Shown: positions 1,661 to 51,868 of the stretch, in pieces
Numbering within the stretch: position 1 is the stretch's first letter
Layout of the letters: each line of letters opens with the position of its first letter
NCBI RefSeq assembly: GCF_964194155.1
Contig: NC_135889.1
Location: 54,746,001 to 54,810,000, forward strand
Reading direction: 5' to 3'
Length of the DNA: 64,000 bases
DNA from: Cetorhinus maximus
Taxonomy: Eukaryota
Translations under genes and position numbers: made by a program
Notes under the pieces: model-generated
Databases searched by the model: none
What the model was told of the DNA's origin: nothing
The model's input: the letters and a program-made list of their open reading frames with translations, nothing else

Positions 1661-2174
1661 CTTTTATTTTGACTGTGTTTCTCTCTTTATTTCCTCCATT
1701 ATTGCGGTCCATTTGTTTTCTGAACTTAATTTTTTGCTGTTTTGCTTTTCTTCTGCCATTGATTATTGAGTTTTCATTTTGCAGATATCAAAACAGAGTG
1801 TGTGTCAACAACAGAAGTACTTCCCCAATTCATACACACTGTTTCTTGTAGCATTTTTACAGAAGGTGAAAGGGAATAACCTTGATCAAGTTCCACCTTC
1901 ATGAAACCAGGAATATTTAGACATCACACAAGGAAAGTGGCACTAAAGAGAGTATAAGGATAACCATAGTATCACTGACAAAAGTGTCTACACTTGGAGC
2001 TGGTGTATGTGAAGAAGTTCCCTCTTTTTCATTGGAAATCTTTTTATCTTATATGCATTGTGCCTATGAATTATCAGCTATGCCAGCATGCTTAAGTACA
2101 GTTGCAAGATTCATGAGCAATTACTGTACTATTTTCCATTAAGATCGATGATGAATTTAAACTTGCATCTTCAT

Positions 2175-9864: not shown

Positions 9865-10731
9865 TACCTCGACTACAGCTCCTCACACCCCGCTTCCTGT
9901 AAGGACTCCATCCCATTCTCTCAGTTCCTTCGCCTCCGTCGCATCTGTTCTGATGACGCTACCTTCAAAAACAGTTCCTCTGACATGTCCTCCTTCTTCC
10001 TTAACCAAGGTTTTCCACCCACGGTGGTTGACAGGGCCCTCAACCGTGTCCGGCCCATCTCCCGCGCATCCACCCTCACGCCTTCTCCTCCCTCCCAGAA
10101 ACATGATAGGGTCCCCCTTGTCCTCACTTATCACCCCACCAGCCTCCGCGTTCAAAGGATCATCCTCCGCCATTTCCGCCAACTCCAGCATGATGCCACC
10201 ACCAAACACATCTTCCCTTCACCCCTCCTGGCGGCATTCCGTAGGGATCGTTCCCTCCGGGACACCCTGGTCCACTCCTCCATCACCCCCTACTCCTCAA
10301 CCCCCACCTATGGCACCTCCCCATGCCCACGCAGAAGATGCAACACCTGCCCCTTCACTTCCTCTCTCCTCACCGTCCAAGGGCCCAAACACTCCTTTCA
10401 AGTGAAGCAGCATTTCACTTGCATTTCACCTAACTTAGTCTACTGCATTCGTTGCTCCCAATGCGGTCTCCTCTACATTGGAGAGACCAAACGCAAACTG
10501 GGTGACCGCTTTGCAGAACACTTGCGGTCTGTCCGCAAGAAAGACCCAAACCTCCCTGTCGCTTGCCATTTTAACACTCCACCCTGTTCTCTTGCCCACA
10601 TGTCTGTCCTTGGCTTGCTGCATTGTTCCAGTGAAGCCCAACGCAAACTGGAGGAACAGCACCTCATCTTCCGACTAGGCACTTTACAGCCTTCCGGGCT
10701 GAATATTGAATTCAACAACTTTAGATCTTAA
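9865..10731 (+). CDS. Partial Penelope polyprotein: RT C-terminal/thumb region plus GIY-YIG endonuclease (5'-truncated, frame open)
   Basis: Uninterrupted frame YLDYSSSHPASCKDSIPFSQFLRLRRICS...CPRRRCNTC...NLVYCIRCSQCGLLYIGETKRKLGDRFAEH...LEEQHLIFRLGTLQPSGLN. Confidence 0.9.
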   Translation, partial: YLDYSSSHPASCKDSIPFSQFLRLRRICSDDATFKNSSSDMSSFFLNQGFPPTVVDRALNRVRPISRASTLTPSPPSQKHDRVPLVLTYHPTSLRVQRIILRHFRQLQHDATTKHIFPSPLLAAFRRDRSLRDTLVHSSITPYSSTPTYGTSPCPRRRCNTCPFTSSLLTVQGPKHSFQVKQHFTCISPNLVYCIRCSQCGLLYIGETKRKLGDRFAEHLRSVRKKDPNLPVACHFNTPPCSLAHMSVLGLLHCSSEAQRKLEEQHLIFRLGTLQPSGLNIEFNNFRS

Positions 10732-11100
10732 ACTCCCTCCCCCCATCCCCACCCCGTTTCTTCCCCCTCCCTTTTGTTTTTGTCAATAATTTATATAGAT
10801 TTTTCTTTTCCCACCTATTTCCATTATTTTTAAATCTACAACTAATACCTTGTCAGTCTTTCCACCCCACCCCCACTAGAGCTGTACCTTGAGTGTCCTG
10901 CCATCCATTCTTAATTAGCACATTTTCTTAGATAATATCACTACCTTCAACACCTCTTTGATCCTTTTGTCTGTGACATCTTTTGATTATCTGCTCCTAT
11001 CACTGCTTGCTTGTCCCCACAACCACCCCACCCTCAACTTCTCTCCCCCCGCCCCCCCACCTTAAACCAGCTTATATTTCACCCCTCTCCTAACTATACT

Positions 11101-11141
11101 TCAGTTCTGTTGAAGGGTCGTGTGGACCCGAAATGTCGACT
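11101..11141 (+). ncRNA. Putative minimal type-I hammerhead ribozyme motif (variant core) in Penelope pseudo-LTR
   Basis: AGTT-CTGTTGA-A-GGGTC(GTGTG)GACCC-GAA-ATGT-C-GACT: 4-bp stem I, 5-bp stem II; core deviates from CUGANGA. Confidence 0.55.
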
Positions 11142-14100
11142 CTTTTCTTCTCCACTGATGCTGCCAGACCTGCTGAGTTTTTCCAGGTAATTCTGTTTTT
11201 GTTTTGGATTTCCAGCATCCGCAGTAGTTTTTTGTTTTTAAACTAAAATCATCATTGACTAAATTTTACTTAGCGGGCAACTAATACTATAACCTGCAGA
11301 AAAGATATCCCCCCTGAACTTTCTAACATGACTGAAAACCCCACGCCATGTTTACACATTACACCGCACTCCCCATAGAATTGTAGTCTTTATAGGAGCC
11401 AGTCCAAAGTTACCCCCAGCTTCCAACAAGCTCACTTCTCACTGTTTTGCTAAGTCACAACGTCCAGTGTCCATCAAAGTCATTTCCCTCCATCTTCTCA
11501 GAAGCCCTGAATAGACTTCCAGCAGCAAGGCCAACTCTAGCAGCTCCCCCTCTCAGTCACACCATGGTGAATCTTCCTCTGTCCTCAAAGTGCCACAGGT
11601 CCTGTCTCTTTAGCCAGAGAATGAGCTCCCACCAGCATCCTATCTGGTGGCTAACAGAAAACAACCTTTTCCTCTGCTTTCCACAGCAACTTCTGTTTTC
11701 CCTTTTCTCCAGGACACACTCTCTCTGTCAAGGGTATCTGATTCAGTAAGTCTGCTATTACCGAGAGTAGGTGCCTCTTGCTTTGTGTTCAGGTATCAAA
11801 TCTGGCACTTGACTTTGAATAAGTTTTGACCTGGGCCCCTAGCTCCATGGCAACCAGCCCATCTGGGCTTAATGCCAGGGAGAATGAGCAGGATGCCACA
11901 TGCCCCTCTCCATTGCTCTGTTTTACCTTGAATTAAAGGAGACAGTTTAAAACATAGTTATCTTATGAATCCTTGCATTCGTAATATTATATCCTTTCTA
12001 TAATATGGTGACTGGACTGTGCAAGTACTTTGTGTGTCTAATCAAGGTTGAACACCAGTTTTGTATAACTTCTCTATTTTGCATTTCTGTCCCTCTAGAA
12101 ATAAACCCTGAGTGTTTGATTTGCTTTTTTTATAAATGGCCTTATTGACCTGCATCGCTACTTTTAGTGATTCTTTTGCTCCTCTGCCCTATTTAGATTA
12201 ATATTTTCGAAGTAAGGTATTTTTTCCTAATGTAAGAGATAACATCCAAAATCTGAAGTACTGTTTTCCATCTCGTCCACCTTTGCTGTAAATACTCTGC
12301 AAGGTGATATTGTATTTAAAATATATTAGCCAAATTTAATGGTACAAAATAGGCATTACAAACATTTTTTAATTTATAATTTATTTCAGATATGTATTTT
12401 GCAAGATGTTCCCCCCCCTGGCAATTTTTATAAGGGAAAAATAACTTAACCACCTTTGACTTCGGTGAATAGAGAAGCAGTAATACAGAAATATCCTCAG
12501 AGGTCACATGCAGGTGAAGGTTATCTAACAGTCTGTGATAAATATAGTGGGACGTAAGAAAATTTAGTAATGCCTGGAATTTGGTTAAAACAGCCACACC
12601 ACCACTGTGATGATTGGACAAGGCAAATGGTGAGAGCTATCACCTGGCAGGGAGGCTTCAGTTAGAGCAGAGGTACCATTATCCCACAGTCACTTTTCCT
12701 TCAAGGGCATGATTTTGATGCAGTCATCTTCATTAAGGTCATGGATTGCTAGGCCTTTGGTCACAATATACTGGAGGGAGATGTAGAGAGGGCAGTTGTT
12801 ACGGACAGGGATGAGAGAGAACTGAAACTCTTGTTCACTTCCCTTACTGCCTATGATTAGTGTGTTTTTTTGAAAAGGAAGATGTGTGCGTTTCTTAACG
12901 CTGAGTGAACAGTCAATTTGAATAACCAGTAGCACACGTTTTGTGCATTTAAAGAGGATTAAGTTGGACTGGTGAATTCTGGAGGAAATCAATTCCACAG
13001 ATGATTGAAGAGATGTCTTTATTTCCTTGCCTATAATGTTCTTAATCCCTTAATTGCTACTTCCACAGCCCATGGGTCTGATAATGCAGGTCCTGGTACA
13101 TTAATAATTATTATTTCTAGGGGGCAGTGGGTTTTAAACAGTTTTTAAACCTGTGTAAGGTGTCTGGGCTCTCCCCCTGCATCTTGTCTTCAGTTGTTTC
13201 TGGAATTGAATTGCTGGGATTAATTAGATTTGAATTTTGAACCTGACCATTTGATCCTTTAGTGGGCAATTCCACACTAACTGCACTTGTGTTTCTCTTG
13301 TGGTTTTCACTAATGCTTTTCATCACAGGGCGTATTATCTTCCTTCTTCCCTTTGCCTTGAGATGGGATTCCCCCCTCAACTGCCCCACGTCCTCTGGGA
13401 CACTACTGCCCACAGGTGGATGTTCAGCTTCCACTGAACTCCCCTGTGGTACTTTGACTAGGTGAGGTATCTACCTCAATCTTCTTTTGCCTGTTTGGGA
13501 ACGTTCCTTGTTCCTATTTAAATCTTGGAAGAAGGCGTCTGCTAACCAAACCTCTGGTTCATTCCCTTCAAACTCTGCTGCTTCTACCCTAGCTCCTTTG
13601 CTTTCCTCTGGCCCTCTGTTGGCCTCTTTAAACTCTAATGGCCTTATCTTGGTCTCTGTACATTCTATGGGTTCTATCCTGGTCTCTTTAAATGTGACTG
13701 CTTTACTTTAGCCGCCTAAACTTCACTGGCCCTATCACTCCCTGTAGAGATTTAGGGATTTTCTTAGCCCTCTGCAGCTGAGCGGAATTTTCCTGGTTCA
13801 ACTCAATTTCCCCAGCCTCCATGGACTGCTCTGGACCCGCTGGACACAAGACCTGATATCCGACTAAGTCGTTCCCCAGCAATTGGTCAATCCCCAGCGT
13901 TGGTAAACTCGGAATGACCCCGACCATCACTACACCAGTGACCAACTTTCTCTGCAGGTACATTTTAACTAAGAAAATCTTCAAGCATTTGCCAGTAAGC
14001 CTTTTTACCAATACTGTGGTATTTGTTCTGCTTTCGGGTGGCATCTCTGTAATGTTCGCTAGTAGTAGTGTTTGTAGGTAAGTGGTTTCTTTGAGGATAG

Positions 14101-15504: not shown

Positions 15505-15870
15505 AAAAAGAAACAATTTCAGCTCTTGGGTGTCACCAGCAAGGCCAGCATTTGTTGCCCATCCCGAAATGCCCTTGAACTGAGTAACTTACTAGGCCAT
15601 TTCAGGGGGCAGTTAAGAGTCAACCTCATTGCCGTGGGTCTGGAGTCACATGTAGGCCAGACCAGGTAAGGACGGCAGATTTCCTTCCCTAAAGGACATT
15701 AGATGGGTTTTTATCAGAATCGATGATAGTTTCATGGCCACCATTACTGAGACTAGCTTTATATTCCAGATTTATTAACTGAATTCAAATTTGAAGCCAT
15801 GTTCCCAGAGCATTAGTGTGGGCCTCTGGATTACTAGTCCAGCAACATTACCACTACACCACCATCTCCC
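15505..15870 (-). mobile_element. tRNA-derived SINE with LINE-B 3' tail, inserted in the Gypsy element
   Basis: Minus strand begins GGGAGATGGTGGTGTAGTGGTAAT (A box) ...GGCTTCAAAT (decayed B box) and ends CAAGGGCATTTCGGGATGGGCAACAAATGCTGGCC, the LINE-B tail. Confidence 0.85.
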
Positions 15871-15908
15871 TGTGTCAGATTCAGTTGATTTTGGCCAATT
15901 TGGCTCAG

Positions 15909-18938: not shown

Positions 18939-20765
18939 CAAATAGGAAAGTAGGAAATAGGAGCAGAAGTAGGCCATTTAGTCTCTCGAGCCTGCTCCAT
19001 TATTCTATTGGATCATAGCTGATTTGAAATGGCCTCAACGTCATTTTCCTGCATTATCCCCAATCCCGTGATGCCTTTACTGTGTAGAAATCTATATAGA
19101 CCAATTTCTGTCTTGAACATACTCAATGACTGAGCATAAACAGCCCTCTGGGATAGAGAGTCCAGATTTTACCACCCTCTGAGTGAAGAAATTCCTCCTC
19201 ATCTCAGTCCGAAATGGGCTACCCCTTATTCTGAGACTGTATCCCCTGGTTCTAGAGCCCTGAGCCCAGGTAAATATCCTTCCTGCATCTACCTTTCTGA
19301 GCCCTGTAAGAATTTTGTATATTTTTATGCGATTGCCTCTTATTCTTCTAAACTCTAGAGAATACAGGCCCAGTCTCCTCATAGGACAATCTCGCTGTCA
19401 GGAAAATGTAATAATTTTCATAATGTTGTGGGAATTTATTGTAAGGTAGGAATAGTGTTTGTCTGTCTGTGTGTGTGTGGGGGGGGTACTTAATTGAATT
19501 AAAGACACAACAAAGCCTTCAGGCCAGCTATCAGAAGAGAAGCTAGGTTTGAAATGTTAAATAGGTAAACATGGCTGAAGTTTTAGAGTGTGAGGTGTAA
19601 AGAGAAAATTTGCATTTTTAGACAAACCAGAGTAATTTGAATTTCAAGAGGTGGTGAAATATTACACTTATCCAGAAGAAGCCAAACAGTGTGTTTATTT
19701 TTCTCAAAGCTTACTGATAAAATTGGTACTATGAAAGAATTTTATTAGAAAAGTAGAATAGAAAAGACATATTGGGACAATGGGATTTACATTAAAAAGG
19801 GAGAAACCTGTGTAAAGGAGATGAGGTTATGTGTAAGAGGAAGAAATTCTAAGACCTCACAAATGTGAAAAGCCTCTAGCCTCTAAGCCTCAAACTGCTG
19901 TCTACACGAACTGAATTGAAGAAAACCCACTTTGAATTGGACTGTTCAGAGTATAATGTTACTTTACCTGGGCCTTTTAAAATCTGCGTTTTGCTATTGC
20001 CTTAATGGAGGTATAACCGGGAGTTAGATTAACTAGGGGAGCTAGGAGTTATTGTAGTAATTTGTAGACCTATGTATGTGCTTAAAATCATTTTTAAAAA
20101 TCTAATAAAGTTTTAATTTAGTTTTGTAAGAAACCTATAAGACTCGGTGGTGACACTAAATGCAAGGCAGGAATCTCGAAATAAATACAAATTGTAAAAT
20201 AGTTGTGGCAGTTGTTTCAAGTTTCCCTTTGGGATTTGTACAGCTCAGCATTTACCATTCGCTGCGCCATATTACCCGCCATCCCAGGAATCAGTCTGGT
20301 GAATCTACATTGCACTCCCTTTTTGGCAAGTATATCCTTGCTTAGGTAAAGGGACCAAAAATGTACATAATACTGCAGCACAGTCTCACCAAGGCTCTAT
20401 ACAATTGCAGCAAGACATCTTTATTCCTGCACTCAAATCCTCTTAACAATAAAGGCCAATATATCATTTACCTTCCTAATTGCTTGCTGCACCTGCATGC
20501 TAACTTTCAGTGACTCATGAACCAGGGTTCCCAGGTGCCTTTGGACATCAATACTTCCCAATCTCTCTGTCTTCAAAAAAACTCTGCATTTCTGTTTTTC
20601 CCCACCAAAGTGGATAATTTCCCATTTTATTCCATCTGCTATGTTCTTGCTTACTCATTACAAGACTTGCTACTCTTTGCACCCTCCTCACAACTCAAAT
20701 TTCAACCTAGTTTTGTGTCATCAACAAACTTGGAAATATTACATTTGGCCCCCACATCCAAATCA
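18939..20765 (-). mobile_element. CR1 LINE 3' fragment inserted in the L2, itself split by a solo LTR
   Basis: ORF 19092-19382 (LGLYSLEFRRIRG, SRTRGYSLRIRG, RRNFFTQRVV); CR1 tail at ~18940; sequence resumes at 20275. Confidence 0.9.
19396..20274 (+). mobile_element. Solo LTR, family A
   Basis: TGTCAGG...CATATTA termini, flanks CTCGC/CCCGC. Shares blocks (GTGTTTATTTTTCTCAA, ATCTCGAAATAAATACAAATTG) with 36173-37078 and 55398-56312. Confidence 0.8.
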
Positions 20766-23700: not shown

Positions 23701-26205
23701 TGTTTCTTTTTCTGGACTTTTTTACCCTTTGACTGAAAATGTCTGTGTGCCTTTTGAAATTAAGACATTGTGTTATCTTTCATCTTCGGCTGTGATTTTT
23801 GACACATTTTTATTATTGGATCTTATAAAATAGAAAAGAAGTGTGCAGAGCAACGCAGTACTCAATTCTGAACAAAACCACAACTGAATTTTTTAACCTT
23901 GATGATAATGTTTTTATTTTGATGAAAATTTTTAGCACTGAGGGGTTGAAAAAGTAATATGCCTTTTTGTGAGCATACGTATGTCTGGATAAATTGAAAC
24001 CTACATAGGTTATTTATAATGTATTTTAAAATGGATTTAAAACAAAGTAACACTTTTTCAATTAATGAGTAAATATGAAATAAGGATATGGTACATATTT
24101 CATCAAATATTTGATGAAATTATGTGCATTTTTTTAAAGCCTGAATATTTTCATGAGCATCTTTTTCACATTTCTGAATAACCATATGCTATCTTGTGTA
24201 CAGTTAATGATGTGTAGGATAGCCTGAAATAACCCTGACAGCTTCCTGTAATAATAGATGTAACTTCCAGGTTGAGTGCACTGCTAGGCATGTGCAGAAG
24301 CTCAGCAATATTATTAACAATGATTGCCTGCTAGCTTTTTTTTTGCCTTGCGAGTAATAAAATAGCAGTGATAGGGTCCTTTGACCTCGCAGCTAAAGTA
24401 GAGAAGTACCCTAATATACTTGTCTATTTTACCTTTTCCTTTATTTGACAAACAGTTCCTGACCAACAATCAGTTTTCAGGTGGGTTAATTATGGCAATG
24501 ATTTGCTTTCTTATAGTGTTCTCATATTTTAAAACAATATATATCTTTGTAATCTACCTACATGGGAGTTTTCTGCCATAACACTATTGTCTTTAAACCA
24601 TGAGAATGAGATGTTCTGACTATTACATACTGCTAAAACCCCAATACATTTGGCTCAATGATCAGTGAACAACAGGCATGTCTTCTATCTATTTTCTCTG
24701 CCTTAGGTTGCATTTTCTGGTATTGTGGAGCATTGCATCAAATGTTCTGATTAAGAACTACCAAATCATTGAATATTCAATGGTTCAGTGAAAAGTGCAG
24801 GAGAGCATGCCAGGAGCAGCACAAGGCATACCTAGAAATTAGGTGTCAACTGTTGAAGCTACAACATAGGAGTACTTGTATGCCAAACAGTGGAAGCAGC
24901 ATGCGATAGGCAGGGCTAAGCAATCCCACAACCAGTGGATCAGATCGAAACTCTGCATTCCTGCCATATCCAATTGTGGATGGTGGTAGACAATTAAACA
25001 ACTAACTGGAGAAGGAGGCTCCACAAATATCCCCATCCTCGGTGATGCTAGTGCCCAGCATAACAATACAAAAGACAAGGCTGAAGCATTTGCAGCCATC
25101 TTCATCCAGAAGTGCTGAGTGGCTGATATTTATCAGCCTCTTCCTGAGGCCACCAGCATCACAGATGTCAGCTTTTAATCAGTTTGATTCATGTGATACT
25201 AAGAAACGGCTGGAGGCACTGGGTACTGCAGAGACTATAGGCCCTGACAACATTCTAGCAGTATACTGAAGGCTTATGCTCCAGAACTAGCTGCGCCCTT
25301 AGCCAAGATGTTCCAGTACGGTTACAACACTGGCATCTACTCAAAGATGTGAAGATTGCCCCGGTATATCCTGTCCACAAAAATCCAACCCAGCCAATTA
25401 CCACCCCATCAGCCTACTCTCGATCACCGGCGAAGTGATGAAGGTGTTGTCAGCAGTGCTATCAAGCGGCACTTACACAGCAATATCCTGCTTGCTGATG
25501 TTCAGTTTGGGTTCCATCAGGACCACTCAGATGTTGAACTCATTACAGCCTTGGTCAAAAGCAGGACAAAGGAGCTGAACTTGAGGTGAGGTGAAAGTGA
25601 CTGCCCTAGACATGAAGGCAGCATTTGACTTATTGTGGCATCAAGCAGCTCTAGCAAAACACTGGTCAGTGGGAATCGTGGGAAGGGGGAAAACTCTCCA
25701 TTGGTGGGAGTCATACCGAGCACAAAGGAAGATGGTTGGAGACCAGTCATCTCAGCTCTTGGACATCACTGCAAGAGTTCCTCAGGGTAGTGTCCTAGGT
25801 CCAAACATGTTCAGCTGCTTCATCAATGATCTTCCTTCCATCATAAGGTCAGAAGTGAGGATGTTCACTGATGATTGCACAATGTTCAGCACAATTGGTG
25901 ACTCTTCAGATACTAAAGCAGTCCGTGTCCATGTTAATTAATACCTGGACAACATTCAGGCTTAGACTGATAAGCGGCAAGTAACATTATCGCCATAGAA
26001 ATGCCATGCAATGATCATCTCCAGCAAGAGAGAAACTAACCATCTCCCCATGACATTCAATGGCATTACCATCACTGAATCCCCCAATGTCAACATCCTG
26101 GAGATTACCAAAAGCTAAAAGCTACTGCGGATGCTGGAAATCCAAAACAAAAACAGAATTACCTGGAAAAACTCAGCAGGTCTGGCAGCATTGGTGGAGA
26201 AGAAA

Positions 26206-26248
26206 TCAGTTAACGTTTCGAGCCTTCACGGCCCTTCGGCAGAACTGA
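26206..26248 (-). ncRNA. Putative minimal hammerhead motif (inverted pseudo-LTR arm)
   Basis: Exact reverse complement of 27321-27363. Confidence 0.6.
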
Positions 26249-27320
26249 AGCATAGTTAGGAGAAAGGAGAAATATAAGCTGGTTTAAGGTCTGGGGGGCG
26301 GGGGAGGGGGAAGAGAGAAGTTGAGGGTGTGGTGATTGTGGAGATAAGCAAGCCGTGATAGGAGCAGATAATCAAAAGATGTCACAGACAAAATGATCAA
26401 AGAGGTGTTGAAGGTGGTGATATTTGTCTAAGAAAAGTGCTAATTAAGAATGGAAGACAGGACACTCAAAGTACAGCTCTAGTGGGGATGGGGTGGAAAA
26501 GACTAACAAGGTTTTAGTTTTAGATTTAAAAATAATGGAAATAGGTGGGGAAAGAAGAATCTATATAAATTATTGAAAAAAAAGGTGTGGGGGGGGGAGA
26601 AACGGGGTGGGGATGGGGGGAAATTTCACTTGCATTTCCCCTAACTTAGTCTACTGCATTCGTTGCTCCCAATGCGGTCTCCTCTACATTGGAGAGACCA
26701 AACGCAAACTGGGCGACCGTTTTGCAGAACACCTGCGGTCTGTCCGCAAGAAAGACCCAAACCTCCCTGTCGCTTGCCATTTTAACACTCCACCCTGTTC
26801 TCTTGCCCACATGTCTGTCCTTGGCTTGCTGCATTGTTCCAGTGAAGCCCAACGCAAACTGGAGGAACAGCACCTCATCTTCCGACTAGGCACTTTACAG
26901 CCTTCCGGGCTGAATATTGAATTCAACAACTTTAGATCTTAAACTCCCCCTCCCCCCATCCCCACCCCGTTTCTCCCCCCCCTTTTTTTTCAATAAGTTA
27001 TATAGATTCTTCTTTCCCCACCTATTTCCATTATTTTTAAATCTAAAACTAAAACCTTGTTAGTCTTTTCCACCCCACCCCCACTAGAGCTGTACTTTGA
27101 GTGTCCTGTCTTCCATTCTTAATTAGCACTTTTCTTAGACAAATATCACCACCTTCAACACCTCTTTGATCCTTTTGTCTGTGACATCTTTTGATTATCT
27201 GCTCCTATCACGGCTTGCTTATCTCCACAATCACCACACTCTCAACTTCTCTCCCCCCCCCCCCCCCCCCCCCCCCCCACCTTAAACCAGCTTATATTTC
27301 TCCTTTCTCCTAACTATGCT

Positions 27321-27363
27321 TCAGTTCTGCCGAAGGGCCGTGAAGGCTCGAAACGTTAACTGA
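27321..27363 (+). ncRNA. Putative minimal type-I hammerhead ribozyme motif (variant core)
   Basis: TCAGTT-CTGCCGA-A-GGGCC(GTGAA)GGCTC-GAA-ACGT-T-AACTGA: perfect 6-bp stem I, 5-bp stem II, palindromic ACGT in place of stem III. Confidence 0.65.
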
Positions 27364-29211
27364 TTTCTTCTCCACCGATGCTGCCAGACCTGCTGAGTTT
27401 TTCCAGGTAATTCTGTTTTTGTCCTGGAGATTACCATTGACCAGACCTGTACTGGACTAGCCTTATAAGTATTGTGACTACAAGAGCAAGCCAGAGGCTG
27501 GGAATTCTGTGGCGAGTAACTCACTATCTGACTCCCGAAAGCCTGTCCACCATCTCCAAAGCACAAGGCAGGAGTTTGATGGAATACTTTTCACTTGCCT
27601 GGATGATTGCAGCACCAATCAAACTCAAGAAGCTTGACATCATCCAGGACAAAGCAGCTTGTTTGACTGGCACTGCACCTGCCATTTTAAGTATTCACTC
27701 CCTCCACCACCTATGCACAGTGGCAGTGATGTGTACCATACATAAGATGCACTGCAGCAGCTCATCAAAGCTCTTTAGACAGCACCTTCCAAAACCGCAA
27801 CCTGGAAGGACAAGGGCAGTAGATGCATGGGAACACCACCACCTGCAAGTTCCCCTCTAAGCCACTCACCATCTTGACTTGGAACTTTTTCGTTGCTCCT
27901 TTATTGCTGCTGGGTTAGAATCTTAGAACTCTCTTCGCAGCACTGTGGGTGTACCTACACCAGATGGACTGCAGCGGTTCAAGGTGGCGGCTCACCACCA
28001 CCTTCTTGAGGACAATTAGTGATGGGGAACAAATGCAGGCCTAGTCAGTGATGCCAACATCCTGTGAAATAATTTTTTTAAAAATCAAGTTTTTATTTCT
28101 TGTCTGAACAAATATGATGGCGTTCCATTTACTTCACCTAGATTTATCATTGGTTTTAATTCCTTTGTTTTAATTCTTCATTTGGCTTCACTTCCACCAT
28201 AAGCAGGGCATTTAATCCACATCAGTGACTTTTATGCCAATTTAATTAGTTTCTTACTTTGTATTAATTTAATTTCAATTTTCATGTTCTTTAAGTGTTC
28301 ATTTTGAGGTTTAATATTTAATTTCTTTGTTACTGGATTGTGTTGAGTGTTCACTTCTAAAAACCTGTACGCATAATGTCATATTACCAACTAAAATGCA
28401 GAACTAAATTGTGTTTAATCTGTGGATGCATTAAAAGGCAACACTTTCAATCTATTCATTGCTTAAAAAAATACTGAGGCCAAAGAATATCAGGGCCACC
28501 TACTTGTTTTGCTGTTATAAAACCAGCAGAGATCAGAAGTGTATCCACCATTAACTGCAAGGAAATTCATCTCCTACAATAATTACTAGGGATGAAATAT
28601 ATGCTTATCACCGGGCCGTTATATTATTGACAAACCTCCATTTTTTAAAACTTTAATTGCACCATTGGGTATGAAATTGTGCTGTACCTTGTGCCACAGA
28701 ATCCACTGTGTGCTGAATTAACAATATTCCATCAAGTGGCATGAAAGTAATTACTGGGGAATGAAATTGCATTGGGCATGTGCAGGGGGATATTTTTTAT
28801 CCTGTTGGTAGATATTCGTAAATTGGTTAAATTGGTGCCTGTGAGCAGAAGAGTAAGTTGTTATCCTTCATTGGAAGTCTACCATTTGTTGAAAGAATAA
28901 TTTCAACGTGGGAAGCACACTAGAATCTGATCAACCGTCCTGCCATTGAATCCGGAGGATGCGGAAGAGGCATTGCTGATGGAATTTCTCTAGTGCTCTT
29001 GCGTGTTGCTGATACATAGTCCAGGTACATTCTCACTGAAGTGCAGGTGGTGACAACTGTTCTGTACGTCAGGACTTTCACTGGTTTGATTGTCAAACAC
29101 TCAATGTCGTAGTTTGTGGAAGGCTGAGGTGGTGCAGCTGATCCGGTGTTGAATCTCCCCATCAGTGGTGGCCATTTTGAGAGAGATGGCTGCCAAGTTA
29201 TGGGAATTTTA

Positions 29212-31742
29212 AAAATTCATTCATGGGATGTGGGCATCTTTGACTAGGTCAGCATTTATTGCCCATCCCTAAGTGCCCTTGAGAAGGTGGCGGTGAGCTG
29301 CCTTCTTAAACCGCTGCAGTCAATGTGGTGTAGGTACATCCACAGTGCTGCTAGTGAGTGGGTTCCAGGTTTTTGACCCAGTGACAGTGAAGGAACGGCG
29401 ATATATTTCCAAGTCAGGATGATGAGTGGCTTGGAGGGGAACTTCCAGGTGATGGTGTCCCATGTATCTGTTGCCTTGTCCTTCTAGATGGCAGTGGTCA
29501 TGGGTTTGGAAGGTGCTGTCTAAGGAGCATCGGTGAGTTCCGGCACTGCATCTTGTAGATGGTACACACTACTGAAACTGTGCTTGGGTGGCAGAGGGTG
29601 TGAATGTTTGTGGTTGGGGTTCCAATCAAGCGGGTTGCTTTGCCCTGGATTGTGTCAAGCTTTTTGGGTGTTGTTGGAGCTGCACTACACAGGCAAGTGG
29701 GGGGTATTCCATCATACTCCCGACTTGTGCCTTGTGGATGGTGGACAGGCTTTGCGGAGTCATGAAGTGAGTTACTCACTTCAAAATTCCTAGCCTCTGA
29801 CCTGTGCTTCTAGCCACTGGCTAATCCAGTTCAGTTTCTGATCAATGGGTAACCCCCAGGATGTTGATAGTCGGGGATTTAGTGATGGTAATACAATTGA
29901 ATGTCAAGGGGACATTCTTGCCCCCTTTCTTTCTTATTGGAAATGATCATTGCCTGGCACTTGAGTGGCGCGAATGTTATTTGCCGCTTGTTAGGCAATT
30001 GTAGATATTGTCCAGGTCTTGTTGCATTTGGACGTGGACTGCTTCAGTGTCTGAGGAGTTGCAAATGGTGCTGAATGTTGTGCAATCATAAGCAAACATC
30101 TCCACTTCTGACCTTATGATGGAAGGAAGGTAATTGATGAAGCAGCTGAAGATGCCTGGAATTCCTGCAGTGATATCCTGGAGCTGAGATGATTGACCTC
30201 CAACAACCACACCCATCTTCCTTTGTGCTAGGAATGGCTCCAACCAGCGAAGAGCTTTCCCCTGATTCCCATTGATTCCAGTTTTGCTAGGGCTCCTTGA
30301 TGCCCACACTTGGTCAAATGCGGACTTGATGTCAAGGGCAGTCACCCTCACCTCACCTCCTGAGCTCAGCTCTTTTGTCCATGTTGGAGCCAAGGCTGTA
30401 ATGAGGTCAGGAACTGGGTGGCCCTGGCATAACCCAAACTGGGCATCCATGGGCAGGTTATTGCTAAGAAAGTGCCACTTGATAACACTGTTAATTGCCC
30501 CTTCTGCTGCTTTACTGATGATTGAGAGTAACTGATGGAACGGTAACTGGCCAAGTTGGATTTGTCCTGCTTTTGTGTATTTGTGTATAGGACGTTCTGC
30601 TATTTCCACATAGCCGGGTAGATGCCAATGTTGTAGCTGTACTGGAACAGCTTGGCTAGGGGTGCAGCTAGTTCTGGAGCACAAACCTTCAGTACTATTG
30701 CTGGAATATTGTCAGGGCCCATAGCCTTTGCAGTATCCAGTGCCTTCAGCCGTTTCTTGATATCACGTGGAGTGAATTGAATTGGCTGAAGACTGGCATC
30801 TGTGATGCTGGTGCTCTCCAGAGGAAGCTGAGATTAATCATCGGCATTTCTGGCTGAAAATTGTCGCAAATGCTTCAGCCTTATCTTTTGCACTGATGTG
30901 CTGGGCTTCCCCATCATTGAGGATGGGGATATTTGTAGAGACACCAACTCCCATGAGTTGTTTAGTTGTCCACCACCATTCACGACTGGACGTGGCAGGA
31001 CTGCAGAGCTTAGGCCTGATCCGTTGGTTGTGAAATCGCTTAGCTCTGTCTATCGCTTGCTGCTTCTGCTGTTTGGCACGCAAGTAGTCCAATGTTGTAG
31101 CTTCACCAGGTTGCCACCACATTTTAAGATATGCCTGGTGCTCCTCCTGACATGCTCTCCTGCACTCTTCATTGAACCAGGATTGATCCCCTGGCTTGAT
31201 GGTAATGGTTGAGTGTGGGATATGCCGGGCCATTAGGCTACAGATTTTGTTCGAGTACAACTCTGCTGCTGCCAATGGCCCACAGCGTCTCATGGATGCC
31301 CTGCCTGTCAGGCTGTTGTTTGACTGGCCTGTGAGACAGCTCTCCCAATTTTGGCACAAGCCCCCAGATATTCGTAAGGAAGACTTTGAGTCGACAGGGC
31401 TGGGTTTGCTGCTGTTGCTTCTTGTGCCCAGGTCAATGCTGGGTTGTCCATCCAGTTTCATTCCTTTCAGACTTTGTAGTGGTTTGACACAACTGTGTAG
31501 CTTGCTAGACCATTTCAGAGGGCATTTAAGAATCAACCACATTGTTGTGGGTGTGGAGTTACATGTAGGCCAGACCAGATAAGTGAACCGACAATGGTTT
31601 CATGGTCACCATTAGACTTTTATTTCCAGACTATTGTTGAATTCAAATTTCACCATCAGCTGTGTTGGGATTTGAACCCAGGTCCCCAGAGCATTACCCT
31701 AGGTCTCTGGATTACTAGTCCAGTGGCAATATCAATAGCCTT
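29212..31742 (-). mobile_element. LINE family B, near full extent: tRNA-SINE head, ORF2 with internally deleted APE, RT and 3' tail
   Basis: 5' ~260 bp matches the SINE head, including B box GGTTCAAATCCC. Then APE start (LTNIWGLVPKLGELSHRPVKQQPD), a deletion, linker (HIPHSTITIKPGDQSWFNEECRR) and RT (QFGLCQGH, ALDIKSAFDQVW, FAYD). Confidence 0.9.
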
Positions 31743-31749
31743 AACACAT

Positions 31750-32335
31750 TCTAGAGCCTCTCCTTCGACATAAATGAGTGAGATATTTGGTTGACCAGGT
31801 GTGGGATGATATGAGTTTTCTTGCCAATATTCAAGGACAGGACAAGTTTATTGTAGGCAGAATTAAAGAGATTCAGACTGGCTTGCAAATCTGGTGCATG
31901 GACTGGACACTGTATGTGGATGGCCTAAAACTGTCTTCCCTGCCAAGTCCTGTTCTCTCAACCCTCATGGCCAACTTCCAGGGGAGGACAAAGAAAACAC
32001 TTCAAAGACGCTCTGAAGTCCTCCTTGAAGCAGAGCAGTATTGACATGAATAACTGTGAGGAGCTTGCAACCTATGGTTCTGAATGGCGACAACTTGTCC
32101 AACAAGTTTTGAGTCACAACACCTTAATGATGAGGCAGAGCGATGGCAGAGAAGGAAGGAAATGGAAGCAAATCCTGCACTCCGGATCCCCACGACCTCA
32201 TGGGACATCCTGCTCCATGTGCCCAAAGATATGTAGGTGGAGAATTGCCCTATTGATCACGTGAAGACTCATGGCAGAAACCCATGACTCTGAGTAGACA
32301 TCATCATCAAATTGAGGGACAGCTGACAACGATGC
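31750..32335 (+). mobile_element. RTE-clade LINE 3' fragment
   Basis: Frameshifted GRTKK..FKDALKSSLKQSSIDMNNCEELATYGSEWRQLV, and a C-terminal zinc-finger-like CSMCPKICRWRIAL..H..H followed by a short 3' UTR. Confidence 0.7.
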
Positions 32336-33034: not shown

Positions 33035-33410
33035 TTTTTTTTTTAAAAATCATTCGGGGTACATGGGTATCGCTGGCCAGGCCAGCATTTATTGCCGACC
33101 CCTAATTTCTCTTCATTGAGTGCTAGGTCATTTCAGAGAGTTAAGAGTCAACCACACTGCTGTGGGTCAGGAGTCACATTTAGGCCAGACCAGCTGAGGA
33201 CAGCAGCTTTCCTGCCTTAAAGGACATTGGTGAACCAGGTGGGTTTTTATGACAATTTTGTCGTTATAGTCACCAAGAATTATATCATAAGCTTTTTATT
33301 CCCTATTTATTTAACTGAATTTAACATCACCAGCTGCTGTGGTGAGATTTTTACTCGCCCCTGAGTCATTTGTCTCCAGCTTATTTGTCCATTAACGCTA
33401 CCATTTCCAA
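33035..33410 (-). mobile_element. tRNA-derived SINE with LINE-B tail (second copy)
   Basis: Collinear with 15505-15870 (GGCCAGCATTTATTGCC, GTTAAGAGTCAACCAC, TAGGCCAGACCAG, TAAAGGACATT); poly-T at the left end. Confidence 0.85.
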
Positions 33411-35710: not shown

Positions 35711-36172
35711 TTGTTGAAGATTCCACTGATACCTCAGAGCAATAGAGAAGAATGTTGGGCTAAAAGCCTAAGCACCTCTTCCCTGCTACTTCCCCTGCAA
35801 GAGAAGTGTGCAATGCAGCAATGATGCACTTAAAAACTGTATATCAAAGGCAGTGATTATTTAAAGTGTTTGAAATAGTATGGCTCGGAAGAATTTATTG
35901 TTTACATTAATGCCATCCTGAAATATGTACAACCGTGAGGAATGTACTTACATTCACTTTATATTCGCTATTAGGAAACCTCTTCTTTCTTCACATTTGA
36001 TGCAAAGGACCCGGATAACCATATGGGGACTTGCATGTGCTTTTGTCGGAGGTTGGCTTTCAGCCCTAAATACAGATACCCTCCTTTGGTGAACCCACTT
36101 CAGCCCGATCTATATCAAAGGGAAATGTGTTAATGGCCAGCTGCAACTGTTCAGGAGCAGTTTCGTTGCTGG

Positions 36173-37078
36173 TGTCATGAAAGTATAATCATTCTCATAA
36201 TATTATTGTGACTTAGTGTAATAGTAGGTTAATAGTGGGGCTTGAATAGCTCCTGTGTTTGTGACTTAATTACATCTTGTAGCTAAGCAGACTGCAAATT
36301 GAAGTATCAAAAGAAGTGAGGTGTAGAAGTGTCTTTAATATGTTAATGAGTAAACATGGTTGGGGTCTTTGCATGTAAGGTGTAAAGGAAATTTGCATAT
36401 TTAGATAGAAAGGGGGATTTGGTTTTCAGAGGGATCTCAGTCTGTTAACAATAGCCAGACAAGCAAGCTAAGGAATGTGTTTATTTTTCTCAAGGACTAC
36501 TGAAAATATATAGTGGCAACATGAAAGATTTATATTATGAGAAAGTTTAAGTTCCAAGGACATATGGACAATGGAACTTACACAGTAAAGGGAGAACCAT
36601 GTATAAAGGAAAATGATGCTATGTGTCAGGAGGAAGGCTTTGTAAGATCTAACAGAAGTTTGAGAAGCCTTCAGTATTTGTGCATTAAGCCTGCTGACTA
36701 CAGAAACCAAAGCTGGGAAAAGCCACTTTGAATCCCACTGTCCAAAGTATTGTGTTTAGCTTGCTGGAATCTTTTAAAATCCATTTTTTGTTTACTGTTG
36801 TTTTAAGGGGGGTGTAACTGGAAGCCAGATTAATTTGGGGTTTTAGAAGTTATTATAGTAATAACTTGGAGACCTATTTATGTGCTTGAAATCTTCTTTT
36901 GTTGATATATGTTTAATACAGTTTTTTTTTAAACTCTGAAGTCAGTAGACTTATTACTTCTGAATTCAGGGCATGCATCTCGAAATAAATACAAATTGCA
37001 AAACTGTTGTGATAGCGTGATCAGGTATCCCTCATGGATTTGATCTGCCTGGGACACACCATCTGTCGCGTCATAACA
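36173..37078 (+). mobile_element. Solo LTR, family A
   Basis: TGTCATGA...TCATAACA inverted termini, AATAAA near the 3' end, collinear with the other family A LTRs. Confidence 0.85.
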
Positions 37079-43094: not shown

Positions 43095-43642
43095 TTTAGA
43101 ATCATAGAATAATGGAATTGGTACAGCTTAGAAGAAGGCCATTCAGCTGTCATGTCCACACCAGCTCTTTGCGATAGCAACCCAGCTCACCCCACTCCCA
43201 GTCTTTCCCATAATCCTGCAATTATTTTCTCTTCAGATAAGTATCCAGTTCTCTTTTGGAATAATTGCACCCACAATTGAATCTGCCACTACTGCACAGA
43301 ATTCAGGCAGTGAATTCCAGATCCTTACCACTCGCTGCTTAATAGTTTTTCTTCATGTCACCCCTGGTTCTTTTACCATTTGCCTTAAATTGGTATCCTC
43401 TGGTTTGCAGCCCTTCCACCAATGGGAACAGTTTCACCCTATCTGTTCTGTCCAGATCCCTCGTGATTTTAAACACCTCTATCAAATCCTCTCAACTTTC
43501 TTTCCTCGAAGGGGAACAGCCCCAGCTTTGCCATTCTACCCATGTAAATGAATCGTCTCATCCCCAGAAGTAGTCTCATAAATCTTTTCTGCAACCCCTC
43601 CATTGTATTCACATCCTTCCTAAAGTCCAGAATTGGACACAA
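43095..43642 (-). mobile_element. CR1 LINE 3' fragment
   Basis: CR1 tail (AGAATCATAGAAT...AGGCCATTCAGC) and ORF2 C-terminal nucleotide motifs ending CAGAATTGGACACAAT. Confidence 0.85.
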
Positions 43643-43799
43643 TGGGCAGAATTTTTGGGCCTCACTGAGGTCAGGAGTAGTAAATGGAATTTAGATCTTA
43701 TTGCATTAATTATTAATCTGACCCTATCTAATACTTTACTATTTCTTACTCTAGTGCTATCTGTCTCTTCCAATCTTTTGTGCACCTTGTTTTCCTTTC

Positions 43800-46892: not shown

Positions 46893-48358
46893 ATGGAGAA
46901 CCTCAGTGCTGAACACGGCAGGCAGGAGGGCAGGTCAGTGGAGCAGTCGGCCCCACGTTTTTCTGATGAGTGTCTCGCTGCCCTCCTGGAGGAGGTGCCA
47001 ACACGCTGGAATATGCTTGCCCCCAGGGACGGGAGGAGGAGGGCTCCCCACCATCACCTCACCGAACATGCCTGGGAGGAGGTGGCATCCAGGGTGAGCT
47101 CCCATGATGTGGTGAGGCGCACATGGGTGCAGTGCCATAAGCACTTCAATGATATCCTGCGATCAGGAAGGGTGAGTACCGTGTTGGCATGGGTCACTTA
47201 GCACAGCATTTAGGAGCGGTCCCCCCCACACCCCCCTGGACCTCAGAGTTCTTAGAGTGTGAGTAGCAAATGTCAATGAGGCAGCATCTGGGCAAGTGGG
47301 TTGAGTGAGCCCTGGCTGCTTGGAATGAATGTCTTGCTGCTCCACGGTCACGAATCGGCTGAGCCCTGCGAGGTTTTCCTCAGGTGGGGTTGGCCAGGCT
47401 GCAATGGCAATGCAGGTACAGGGTGGACTAATCAATGCTCCTCTCTCCTTTCAGGAGAAGACATCCCACAACAATGCTGAAAGGTTGCAGACTGGCGGAG
47501 GGCCGCCCCACCTTCTAATCTTGACCAGATACGAGTAGGAGGCACTGGAGCTGGAGAGGCGCCAAGCACCTAGGTCAACCGGCCGCGGTGAGGTTTGGGT
47601 GCCACAGGGAGATAAGAGTGCAGTGCGCTGAGGTCAGAATGCCTGTCATAGCAACCATTCCACTGTTGTCTCTATATTGATGTGAGCCTCGAACATGGAG
47701 CCCCTATTGATAATGGGAAAACAAGGACACCCTGATCCGGATGCCAGGCATGCACAGTAACAGTGTGATGACTTCCACTAATGACATGTCCTTGTTCTTC
47801 CTTTCAGGCTCACCAGAAGCCCGTCAGGGTCAGGAGCCTGAAGGCCCTCTGCTCACTGCAGAGGACATAGAGGATATAAATGCAGGAGCTGAATCAGGGC
47901 TTCCTGGGGATGCGCTCGGACCTGTAACCCTCACAGCGGCAATGATCTCAAGTGGCCCCTGTCTGTGTGGGAGATGGATTGGGCACCCAGTATCCCAGCT
48001 AGTTGCCAATCCATCCATGGTCAGCAGGGAGGTCCAAAGCAGCCTGACGGCGCACAAGCTGCTTGCTGTCTCTTCGGGCTCCTCTTAGGGCGTTCTGGAT
48101 GACAGCTGCAGCTCCTCTGCCCCTCTGCCAGTGACCGTGGCATCCAATGAAGCTGCGGTGACTGGGGAGATGCCAGCTGTGGCATGGGCCACTCCCTCCC
48201 AGGAGGGACCAGCATAGGCTCCACGGGCAAGAGGACGCCCGCCAAGGTCATCAAGGCCAACAGGACAGCAGAGTGAGCAGGCTGCCCCCAATGCCGGTGC
48301 CAGTGAGGGGGGAGCACCTAGACGTAGCACCCGCAAGTGAAAACTTAAAGCACCTTAA
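46893..48358 (+). pseudogene. Harbinger Myb/SANT-like DNA-binding protein, 3 exons (46893-47171, 47455-~47610, 47808-~48358)
   Basis: APRFSDECLAALLEEV...AWEEVASRVSSHDVVRRTWVQCHKHFNDILRSGR|GTGAGT. Acceptors TTTCAG at 47454 and 47807, each with an upstream CTAAT branch motif. Exon 2 EKTSHNNAERLQTGGGPP. In-frame stops. Confidence 0.85.
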
Positions 48359-48668
48359 GCAAAACACGGGCTTATCACTGGTGATAGTTTTTTTCCCCAC
48401 TTTTACGTTAATTATGATGGCGAACACCTTTGAATTTAATTTGTTTTATGTATGCCAGGCACCAATGTGCTTGTGTTCAACAAGCCTCTGGGTGCTTCAT
48501 TAGTTCTGTAGGTGAAGGGTAACCCATGATGTTATGAGTGACTTGTTTGTCATTGAGCTTTATTGAAATGGAACATAGTGCATGTTGTTCACCAAGCAAA
48601 TGTTCCTGTCAGGTATCCAGTATGGAGCCTGCAGGCCTGGCATGTGGTGGTGGTTCATCTTTGGTAGG

Positions 48669-49895
48669 CTAGCTGAAGGAGCATTGGATCAAAGCCTCCC
48701 GGGTGTCCCTGCCACCCTGGAGGTTGCCCAGGTCAGCGTCTATCCCCTCAGCGTTCTCCTGAGCGTGTTTGTCCTCGGGCTCGCTACTGGACTCATCGTC
48801 TGCAGCCAGAGCAGCTGCGTCAGGCATCTTCTTCCTCCACTGTGTCCCCCCTTTCCAGCGCCAGATTGTGGAGAGTGCAGCATGCAACCGCTATCAGTGA
48901 CACACGATCTGGAGGGTATTGGAGTGCACCCTCTGAACGGTCCAGGCATCAGAAGCGCATCTTGAGAAGACCAATGGTTCTGTCCACCACAGCCCTTGTG
49001 GAGGCATGGCTCCTATTGTACCGCTGCTCAGCCGCTTTTCTTTGATGGTGGAGAGGTGTCATGAGCCACCTTCTGAGGGGATAACCCTTCTCACCCAGCA
49101 GCCATCCGTCAGGCCGGGCTGGAGCACTGAAGAGCCCCGGCACCTGGGAGTGTCTCAGGATATAAGCGTTTTGGGAGCTGCCTGGGTACCTTGCACAGAC
49201 TTGTAGAATCTGCATCCTGTGCTCACACACTATCTGCACGTTCATGGAGTGGAAGCTCTTCCTGTTGACGAAGGCACCGGGTTCACTTGCTGGCTCCTTG
49301 ATGGCCACATGTGTGCAGTCGATGGCACCCTGGATGAGGGGGAAGCCAGCAATCGCTGCGAAGCCTTTGGCTCGCTCTGCCTGGCTGGCCTCGTCTCTGC
49401 GGTAGTGAATGAAAGTCAACGCACGCCTTAACAGAGCGTCTGTCACCAGCTTGACACAACTGGTTGGGAGACTCCACAAAGATCACCCACCGACCCCTGG
49501 AAAGAGCCGGAGGCATAGAAGTTGAGGGCCACTCTGACCTTCAGCAGCACTCGCATGGGATGTCCACTCACACTATTGGAGTTGATCTCAGGGCCGATCA
49601 TTTGACGGATGGAGGTCACGGTCTCCCTTGAGTGGCGGAGCTTCCTTCAGCGTTGCACCTCAGACATATTGAGGTATCTGCATTGCCGCCTGCAAACCCT
49701 GGCAGCAGGATAGTGGCGTTGACTTCGGCCCCTTCCGCCTTGGACTTCCTGTTGGCCCTGCGCCCCTTGTGCCTGCGCCTCTCCTCCCACAGGTCACTCC
49801 CCTGGAGGCTGAATAGTGACACCTGGCCTCCTCCCTCTTCTGCCCCTCTCTTCCTCCTCAGAGGAGGTGCCTCCAGCGGAGAACACAATTCCCAT
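48669..49895 (-). pseudogene. Harbinger DDE transposase (HARBI1-like), with stops and frameshifts
   Basis: [85 protein letters not shown]. Confidence 0.95.
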
Positions 49896-50582
49896 TCCCA
49901 GGGTAAGGGAAGGCTGTCTGATACCTGGAAGGCCCCAAGTGTTATGATTCCTCCAGAGTCCTGAACTGAAGCCTGTTCTTTCTGTCAAAGCAGCTGTGAA
50001 GCGAAATGAAGTTGTCCTGTTCACACAAGCAAGTAGCAGTAAGTTATAATCTAAAGTACTAACAACTCGCATTAGTGAGCCCACTCACCCCTCTTATCCC
50101 GCCCGTGGATGAGGTTTTTGAAAATGTGGCCTATCTGCCTGCCCGCTGTGCCCATGCGACTCCCTGAAAATCGCACTGGCTGCGTAAAATCAAATTCAAT
50201 TGGTGCCTCAAGGGCCTTAACTGGCCTGTTAATTAATGGCGGGCACACCTCCGTCATCATCGTGTGCCTGCCTACCGAAATATCACGAGAGTGCACGGTG
50301 ACGTCGGGACGCACGCCCAACGTCACCATGCGTCATTTTACGTTCCGGCGTGTCAGGCCTGTGCTCGCGCACCGAATGTAAAATTCTGCCTGACAACTCT
50401 GGTCTGGCTGAGTTTCTGGTCAATATTGATTATACCCTATTCCAAGACGTTGAGGTGAAAGATTCAGTGACAGTACTGCAATTAATTGTCGAGGAATGTA
50501 GTTAACGTTAATTGTATATCAGTTATGTTTAATTATATGAAGGTGGAGGGCATTAATTGGGATTTCATTTCAGCACTTAAAA

Positions 50583-50725: not shown

Positions 50726-51374
50726 TACTGAAATTGTTGTGTGTTTGAGTTAGGAAATAAATGCTTGTAATGTTTCACTCTAAATAAATGTAAGACTGCA
50801 TAAGATTTGGTTCCATTATCATCCTTCACCGACTGGCTTTCCAGAATAAAATAGTTAGGCACATCCTTGTTGGAGGTGGTCATTGTTTGGGACTGCGGCA
50901 TGGATGTTACTTGCCAGTTATTAACCAATGAGTACATATTTTACAGATAATGTCCATTTCCTTTGCTTACAAAAAGGTCATGCCAAGCTGTTTCAATCAT
51001 GTTTGGAAGTTAGTATTAAGCTGCACAATTTATGCAAATTATATCAGTCATCCCAAAGTATTATTGAGCTCAATAACATGGCCTGATCTCCTGAGCTGAT
51101 TTTCAAAATACACTTTCTACCACTACTCTCCTTATCAATTACATTGGTGCATAATTAGAAACTCGGGCTTTGAAGCTTGAATAATGCTTTGAAACCATCT
51201 TCTCTCTCCCCCCGCCCCTCCCCCCCTCTCCCCAACCTCTCTCTGTGTAGGGATAATTTTACGAAATTGCTGTGACAGTGGAACTTGTCACTCCAGAAGT
51301 ACATATGGTTGCCTATAATTTGCACCAGGAATTTCTAGGCCTCTTTATTTGAAAAGCTTGCAAAATTCATTTTT

Positions 51375-51868
51375 TAAAAATCTATTCATTCATAGGATGT
51401 TGGTGCAACTGGCTAGACTGAGATTTATTGCCCTATCCTAATTGCCCTTGAGAAGATGGGAAGATGGTGGTGAACAGCCTTCTTGAACCGCTGCAGTCCA
51501 TGTTTTGTAGGAACACCCACAGTGCTGTTAGGAAGAGAGTTCCAGGATTTTGACCCAGCAGCGGTGAAGGAATGGTGATATAGTTCCAAGTCAGGATGAT
51601 GTGTGGCTTGGTGGGGAACTTGCAGGTTGAGGTGTTCCCATGCATCTGCTGCCCTTGTCCTTCTAGGTGATAGAGGTCATGGGTTTAGAAGGTGCTGTCA
51701 CAGGAGCCTTGGTGAGTTGCTGCAGTGCATCTTGTAGATGGTACACATTGCTTCCGCTGTGCATTGATGGTGAAGTTTAAGGTGTGGATGGGGTACCAAT
51801 TAAGTGGGCTGCTTTGTCCTGGATGGTGTCAAGCAGCAGAGTGTTGTTGGAGCTGCACTCATCCAGGA
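51375..51868 (-). mobile_element. LINE family B, short 3' fragment
   Basis: Collinear with 29212-29700 and 8403-8820. Confidence 0.9.

Follow-up and report, generated by a model that had tools for sequence, protein, structure and literature searches.

A tRNA-headed, protein-coding Zenon LINE of Cetorhinus maximus, likely made by Pol III and likely the source of nearby SINEs

In the usual view, LINEs are transcribed by Pol II, and SINEs, by Pol III. In the studied stretch of the Cetorhinus maximus genome (64,000 nt, hereafter the window), a LINE copy begins with a sequence that, as pointed out in an earlier note on this DNA, resembles the tRNA-derived head of two SINEs. This raises the question of whether the head belongs to the LINE, whether it could direct transcription of a protein-coding element by Pol III, and which of the two repeats gave rise to the other. 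We suggest that the LINE is likely a protein-coding element made by Pol III, and that the nearby short repeats likely arose from it by loss of the middle part.

Anatomy of the window copy and its insertion

The features of the copy, its flanks and the two SINEs are as follows.

31740..31898, minus strand: 5′ flank, RTE-like host repeat, mapping to L305:7079-7241
29207..31739, minus strand: whole decayed Zenon LINE copy (head, single ORF and tail), one insertion
31660..31739, minus strand: tRNA-derived head, 5′-truncated by approximately 11 bases (from the sequence and the alignment of the family head with tRNA-Thr(TGT))
31723-31707, minus strand: Thr-like anticodon arm in the head, flanked by the A-box remnant and an extra hairpin
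31678-31667, minus strand: B box GGTTCAAATCCC (from the sequence)
31491..31659, minus strand: 5′ body common to the LINE and the SINEs, not a V domain
31502..31513, minus strand: ATG-GTC-TAG-CAA (ATG-GCC-TAG-CAA in the family), candidate read-through start in the ORF frame
31379..31490, minus strand: linker specific to the LINE, giving the ORF a basic N-terminal extension; in the majority sequence, it is free of stops in this frame
31306..31378, minus strand: start of the APE endonuclease (LTNIWGLVPKLGELSH; from the sequence, with Pfam Exo_endo_phos_2 in copy L066, E 1.5e-9)
31301..31306, minus strand: site, with a 4-base filler, at which a 657-bp deletion private to this copy took out most of the APE domain
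29269..31301, minus strand: rest of the ORF with the reverse transcriptase (approximately 30730-29955), by tblastn; stops and frameshifts break the frame
29207..29281, minus strand: 3′ tail common to the LINE and the SINEs, with an A/T-rich run at the end
28931..29206, minus strand: 3′ flank, host repeat, mapping to L305:7245-7534, directly after the 5′ flank match
15505..15872, minus strand: SINE of the main junction class 316/3218, long-head type
33035..33410, minus strand: decayed SINE copy of the same family

The window copy aligns to the family majority sequence at positions 18–508 and 1166–3285; its losses comprise the first approximately 11 bases, two short stretches of the body and 657 bp of APE. 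The remainder of the ORF (29269..31301) is 87.5% identical to the majority. The 5′ body carries deletions of 21 and 32 bp, and the A box is cut and decayed. An intact B box and an unpreserved A box had been reported for this copy, and both are seen in the sequence. The previously given length of 2.5 kb applies to this copy but not to the family (3.29 kb), 657 bp of APE being deleted here, and the element starts at approximately 31739 rather than at 31742, the bases above belonging to the host repeat.

The head and tail matches between the LINE and its two SINEs range from 77 to 89%. The head is indeed collinear with both: by blastn, 31491–31583 matches 15578–15670 (86%) and 31670–31723 matches 15789–15842 (85%) in one SINE, and 31503–31578 matches 33121–33193 (83%) in the other. 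The common tail is also found (29207–29280 vs. 33041–33113; 29246–29282 vs. 15542–15578). In the second SINE, the B box and the junction are decayed. From the junction at 31491, it is 113 bp to the start of the APE motif LTNIWGLVPK at 31378, which leaves, as had been claimed, no room for ORF1.

The copy is flanked by a host repeat, which we take to be RTE-like from its protein motifs. As the two flanks map side by side in another copy of this repeat (L305), the head, ORF and tail entered as one insertion. A search for TSDs in 18 full-length copies yielded no convincing duplication adjoining both ends; TSDs being unusable, the split host repeat was taken to delimit the insertion instead. Pieces of the host RTE-like repeat in both orientations are found at 31760–32300 of the window, its minus strand running on across the Zenon insertion, with the plus-strand 3′ piece further out.

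These observations bear on another explanation of the locus, an independent SINE inserted by chance beside a truncated LINE. We consider it refuted, as neither a tail nor a TSD lies between the head and the ORF, the entire insertion sits within one continuous host repeat, and the same junction recurs genome-wide, being present in 40 of 40 scored matches (from 5756 first-look candidates).

The window also contains further 5′-truncated Zenon copies (24781–28092, 8409–9580, 10412–11239, and 51372–51871), the first of them interrupted near 26110–27428 by an inverted duplicated segment (95% alike) that matches 10412–11239 at 88–92%. Distant RT-bearing repeat fragments at 990–1507, 3490–4095, and 43164–43643 are probably 3′ ends of canonical CR1. 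Two inverted repeat copies, 48242–50358 and 61967–64000 (70–79% alike), have a minus-strand frame with a GAIDCTH motif that reads like a Harbinger/PIF-type DDE transposase, and a non-coding repeat of approximately 900 bp is present in three copies at 69–75% (19396–20238, 36170–37078, and 55398–56315).

The Zenon family and its 5′ end

We assign the element to the CR1-Zenon LINE of elasmobranchs, a family of 3.3 kb with a single 975-aa frame; its match to published Zenon comes from a by-eye comparison of 400 bases, in which CarCar_Zenon-1 agrees nearly base for base. The nearest proteins are 37–48% identical, mostly 930–1050 aa long and encoded on 3–4 kb contigs. A quick RT tree with no labelled Zenon references places the element next to Hydra-labelled proteins, in a clade of 21 rows (SH-aLRT 97) that does not include canonical CR1 of the same genome. 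In the available text of Stuart et al. (2026, PMC13343379), the Zenon elements reported from five elasmobranch species all lack ORF1 and end in poly-A, the published set comprising CarCar_, HypSab_, RhiTyp_, and ScyCan_Zenon-1 and SquAca_Zenon-1 to -3. The earlier premise that the group normally has ORF1 is therefore wrong for Zenon, which in that text is universally without it, and since the missing ORF1 is normal for Zenon, its loss was rejected as a novelty.

The family majority sequence of 3285 bp contains one open frame of 975 aa (positions 304–3229) followed by a 54-bp 3′ UTR; the APE motif is at position 436, and a long upstream ORF is absent. APE and RT reside in this single frame, and both Pfam domains, Exo_endo_phos_2 and RVT_1 (the latter in stop-free stretches of copies L062 and L042), are found in real copies. 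Full-length copies have A-rich ends, and the linker is joined at the same junction in aligned family copies. An intact or near-identical young copy was not seen, the best one being at approximately 96%.

How general the head is can be judged from three samples. A 196-bp query over the body end, the linker and the APE start yielded 5756 first-look candidates, and all 40 scored matches cover nearly all of it. As this query favours headed copies, two unbiased tests were run. With an APE-internal query, 16 of 29 copies (the window copy left out) cross the same junction, in one the head is followed by a deletion, and the remaining 12 break off at various places inside the element; none of the 29 has another 5′ UTR or ORF1, and their upstream flanks have only unrelated repeats in common, located away from the break points, with no alternative 5′ sequence. 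The random sample comprised 95 stretches at fixed positions, 949,600 bases in total (100 positions requested, five of them nonexistent). Here, the family (LINE and SINE forms) constitutes approximately 8.6% of bases, eight of nine alignments over the APE start reach the head, with the ninth stopping in the linker, and of the 30 alignments, LINE and SINE combined, whose start falls within family positions 1–60, 18 begin at positions 1–4. Scaled from this sample, the number of headed LINE copies in 4.0 Gb is estimated at approximately 34,000 (Poisson range 15,000–66,000). The family normally begins with this tRNA(Thr)-like head.

The head comprises an A box (family positions 13–23), an anticodon arm, an extra hairpin, and a B box (77–87), with the A–B spacing of approximately 64 nt. 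When aligned with tRNA-Thr(TGT) of the same genome, it scores 43, compared to the mean of 20.6 and the maximum of 36 in shuffles (n = 200). Among 22 tRNA sequences of five types, Thr is the best match and Val, a close second, both above all 200 shuffles. The anticodon arm equals that of the genome’s tRNA-Thr(TGT) except for one compensatory pair and the AGT anticodon. The head was not called as a tRNA by ARAGORN in the window, nor recognised by Rfam in four full-length copies, and its RNA folds no better than shuffles.

Over their first 400 bases, the seven elasmobranch consensuses of the published supplement all open with this head, its boxes and this junction; the 400 visible bases of two hagfish Zenons and one coelacanth Zenon contain no such head (PMC13343379). 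Within the visible part of the LINE consensuses, both boxes persist in the five species, with the bases between them varying; only HypSab misses one B-box base. The head-on-LINE structure is real, family-wide, and common to the five elasmobranch species.

T-run depletion, transcription and translation

The earlier note had counted two T4 runs and no T5 in the sense strand of the window copy. The two T4 runs are present in the body (at 30860 and 29786), but the tail has a T5 at 29215. At the family level, the depletion relative to shuffled controls is stronger than had been thought. The majority sequence (3285 bp) contains no T4 and six T3 runs vs. 14 runs of A4+, 11 of C4+, and nine of G4+. 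In the ORF, four T3+ runs are observed vs. 12.8 ± 2.5 expected under the synonymous-codon shuffle (0 of 5000 shuffles as low), and the same shuffle reveals no shortage of A, C, or G runs; all four TTT are Phe codons, and TTA codons are absent. The dinucleotide shuffle yields P = 0.021 for T3+ runs. The absence of T4 alone is not significant (P = 0.10 in the synonymous shuffle and P = 0.18 in the dinucleotide shuffle), and neither is the test for five T in six positions (0 vs. 2.3, P = 0.14). The majority sequence of the older long-head subfamily (14 copies) has no T4 either, and that of random copies has a single one, at a TTTCG site, which we read as CpG decay.

Canonical CR1 of the same genome, whose majority sequence was built likewise from 30 loci, is not depleted (T3+: 32 vs. 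33.6 expected; T4: 9 vs. 11). Further controls were 53 of 80 metagenome loci, those with an open frame of at least 400 aa, no N, and a BLAST hit, the other 27 being dropped. Of these CR1-group ORFs, 52 have at least five T4 runs, and L141, the sole tree neighbour with DNA, has 20. Two of the 53 are equally low by z-score (–3.5 and –3.7), but their observed-to-expected ratios are 0.75–0.78 compared to 0.31 here, and most control ORFs are far more T-rich than the shark Zenon ORF. Such poverty in T runs is what selection against Pol III termination would leave, though the evidence is indirect. Among the points that count against the Pol III reading are that T3, the carrier of the depletion signal, is itself no terminator, that ARAGORN, Rfam and RNA folding did not single out the head, and the A–B spacing.

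The element has the layout of Pol III type 2, with the A and B boxes downstream of the start and no T4+ in both young and old majority sequences. Judging from these features of the sequence, Pol III probably transcribes the tRNA-headed Zenon LINE, and we consider this the most likely mechanism. Alternatively, the tRNA head could be a captured relic serving as the 5′ UTR, with the boxes working only in the SINEs and the LINE RNA produced by Pol II, which would either start at a promoter within the 230-bp body or read through from host genes; RNA stability or splice avoidance would then account for the T-poverty. A capped RNA would solve the translation problem discussed below, the absence of T4 by itself is not significant, as said above, and LINEs and their bipartite derivatives are generally held to be made by Pol II in the available text of PMC5786205. 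We find this alternative somewhat unlikely given the conservation of both boxes in the visible consensuses of five species amid changing bases, the specificity of the depletion to T runs and to this family, the pile-up of 5′ ends at the tRNA-like start, and AATAAA at family position 117.

For a Pol III transcript, translation is the difficult step. Pol III RNAs are uncapped and normally untranslated. Moreover, of the open frame and the start codon that the earlier note proposed to look for in the consensus ORF, the frame is open for 975 aa, but neither the endonuclease nor the sequence ahead of it offers an in-frame ATG other than that of the ATG-GCC-TAG read-through, and the first in-frame ATG after the upstream TAG is at family position 1174, past the APE domain. 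UAG followed by CAA is a leaky-stop context. Of 38 copies, 25 have the TAG of ATG-GCC-TAG, and in 27 the distance between ATG-GCC-TAG-CAA and the APE motif is divisible by three, its two modes differing by 3 nt; by eye, the frame of ATG-GCC-TAG holds in only three of five species in the visible part of the published consensuses.

The headed form might instead be an amplified chimera that is not autonomous and depends in trans on a headless master Zenon whose 5′ UTR is normal. In favour of this, the frame has no usable in-frame ATG before position 1174 unless read-through occurs, and no intact copy was seen. This possibility seems very improbable to us, as a headless full-length form is absent from the 29 query-selected and nine random copies, the majority ORF is fully open over 975 aa, and the linker length variants differ by 3 nt.

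Returning to Pol III transcription, we propose the following course of events. An ancestral Zenon would have gained the tRNA(Thr)-derived head before the shark/ray split, probably by template switching. TFIIIC would bind the A and B boxes of the head, and Pol III would read through 3.3 kb, oligo-T stops having been selected against, and terminate at the first T-run in the flank. The uncapped RNA would be translated unconventionally, most simply from ATG-GCC-TAG-CAA by stop read-through, or else from a non-AUG codon or via a frameshift from an out-of-frame ATG in the linker. The LINE protein would then bind the 3′ tail and insert the RNA by target-primed reverse transcription. As both promoter and tail are kept, a single deletion would yield a finished SINE. 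The complete scenario, that is, an autonomous “coding SINE” transcribed end to end by Pol III from a captured tRNA promoter, with uncapped RNA, stop read-through, persistence in sharks and rays, and SINEs formed by single deletions, is put forward tentatively, its chances in our estimate falling slightly short of even.

Origin of the SINEs and known relatives

The short repeats have the features of SINE2, that is, a tRNA-related head with A and B boxes, a LINE-derived 3′ tail, and amplification as a unit. Instead of the single head-to-tail jump described earlier, several junctions are found, with at least three amplified classes defined by the family positions joined, 316/3218, 294/3219, and 320/3190. 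Class 320/3190, with three more head-side and approximately 30 more tail-side bases, is seen in 20 of 20 loci, including the query’s own. There are two head types, each found on both LINE and SINE: all eight copies examined of class 294 have young-LINE head diagnostics only, and seven of them have the LINE tail, while the head of the main SINE matches the majority of the old long-head LINE. The tails of long-head LINEs are mostly unlike the main SINE tail, two of seven matching it partly or fully. One-off head-plus-tail deletions with other break points occur at L273 and L006. In contigs of four runs guessed to be RNA (four organisms, four studies; DNA possible), the head and the ORF start are covered, and the SINE junction is present as loose ends; such contigs do not reveal the start, strand or polymerase and carry no weight here. 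A short form at L269:4996–5127, with a young-LINE head and tail, its own junction and a 13-bp tandem duplication at the tail start, is possibly a fresh independent deletion.

As the source of the SINEs we favour repeated deletion from the LINE; this part of the earlier proposal is well supported by the sequences compared, though not proven. The direction may have been the reverse, with a tRNA SINE carrying the Zenon tail coming first, and LINE subfamilies repeatedly taking SINE heads by template switching. This would concern the origin only: the SINEs would not be deletion products, and the use of Pol III would be compatible with it. Common head diagnostics are symmetric evidence, the 3′ break points of classes 294 and 316 nearly coincide, and small deletions in the longer class 320 could have produced both, and tail variants of the main SINE are rare among LINE copies. 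We nevertheless regard the reverse direction as unlikely. It would demand that the switch fall within a few bases of the SINE body/tail border, the part common to both repeats ends with an ATG and codons in the ORF frame, class 294 is young LINE both in the head (8/8) and in the tail (7/8), and fresh head-plus-tail deletions of the LINE are observed.

If the proposed reading is true, a coding LINE with a Pol III layout and a terminator-free strand would break the division between Pol II-made LINEs and Pol III-made SINEs, the latter having, according to the available text of PMC5786205, no capacity to encode protein. Such an element would provide an example from nature of a long protein-coding Pol III RNA, making cap-independent or read-through translation testable. 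Deletion from LINE to SINE would provide a one-step route to new SINEs with a traceable origin of the SINE body, a standing question in the field.

The closest known system is elasmobranch Zenon itself, the same family (CarCar_Zenon-1 has 3288 characters, no ORF1 and an A-rich tail; PMC13343379, available part). The words “tRNA,” “promoter,” “polymerase,” and “pol III” have no occurrences in its main text, and descriptions of the head, T-run depletion, start-codon problem or SINE derivatives were not found in the available part of this publication. In the open literature, judged by titles, opening lines of abstracts and selected passages, we found no description of a tRNA-headed or Pol III-transcribed autonomous shark LINE; in particular, the available parts of PMC3747384, PMC11481361, PMC5804259, PMC6685494, PMC5499810, PMC4494074, and PMC6887750 describe no tRNA-headed autonomous shark LINE. 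Within this literature, the presence of a tRNA head on a coding LINE appears undescribed, as do the depletion of T runs, the problem of the start codon and the matching classes of SINEs; this SINE may already bear a name, as Repbase and Dfam were outside the comparison.

The HE1 V-SINE and HER1 LINE of sharks and rays are likewise a tRNA SINE paired with a CR1-group LINE (PMC3747384, available part). The identity with HE1 or V-SINEs was rejected. The best match of the 5′ body to the V-domain motif from the visible part of the PMC5804259 supplement, a single, invertebrate-derived motif, has 11 mismatches out of 24; as the motif is unmatched in the body and a separate V-like SINE exists in the genome, the shark SINE is probably not HE1. 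This separate tRNA-headed SINE with a V-domain-like body lies at L236 (minus strand, near 8770) and contains the one motif hit in all loci of the own genome. The body motifs were not found in the available supplements of PMC11481361 and PMC6887750.

In the available text of Kojima (2018, PMC5786205), Bov-tA, SINE2_Gav, and SINE2-1_ACar consist, like the shark SINEs, of a tRNA head, a LINE 5′ part and a 3′ part. The bipartite SINE model proposed there differs, with the deletion occurring first and the tRNA head added later, whereas the shark head sits on a coding LINE; the donors found there are RTE and Vingi only. A tRNA-like piece in a LINE has a precedent in RTE-1_DAn, which, with its relatives, resembles shark Zenon in containing a tRNA-like sequence, but belongs to the RTE clade, this piece being described in the same available text without position or function.

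Another parallel is Persaeus, a SIDE of insect (lepidopteran) Zenon. According to the available text of PMC6740152, it is composed, like the shark SINEs, of the 5′ and 3′ ends of a single-ORF Zenon of approximately 3.3 kb and arose several times; unlike them, it has no tRNA homology and no Pol III promoter. As the shark parent LINE itself would carry the Pol III promoter, its deletion product is a SINE, unlike Persaeus.
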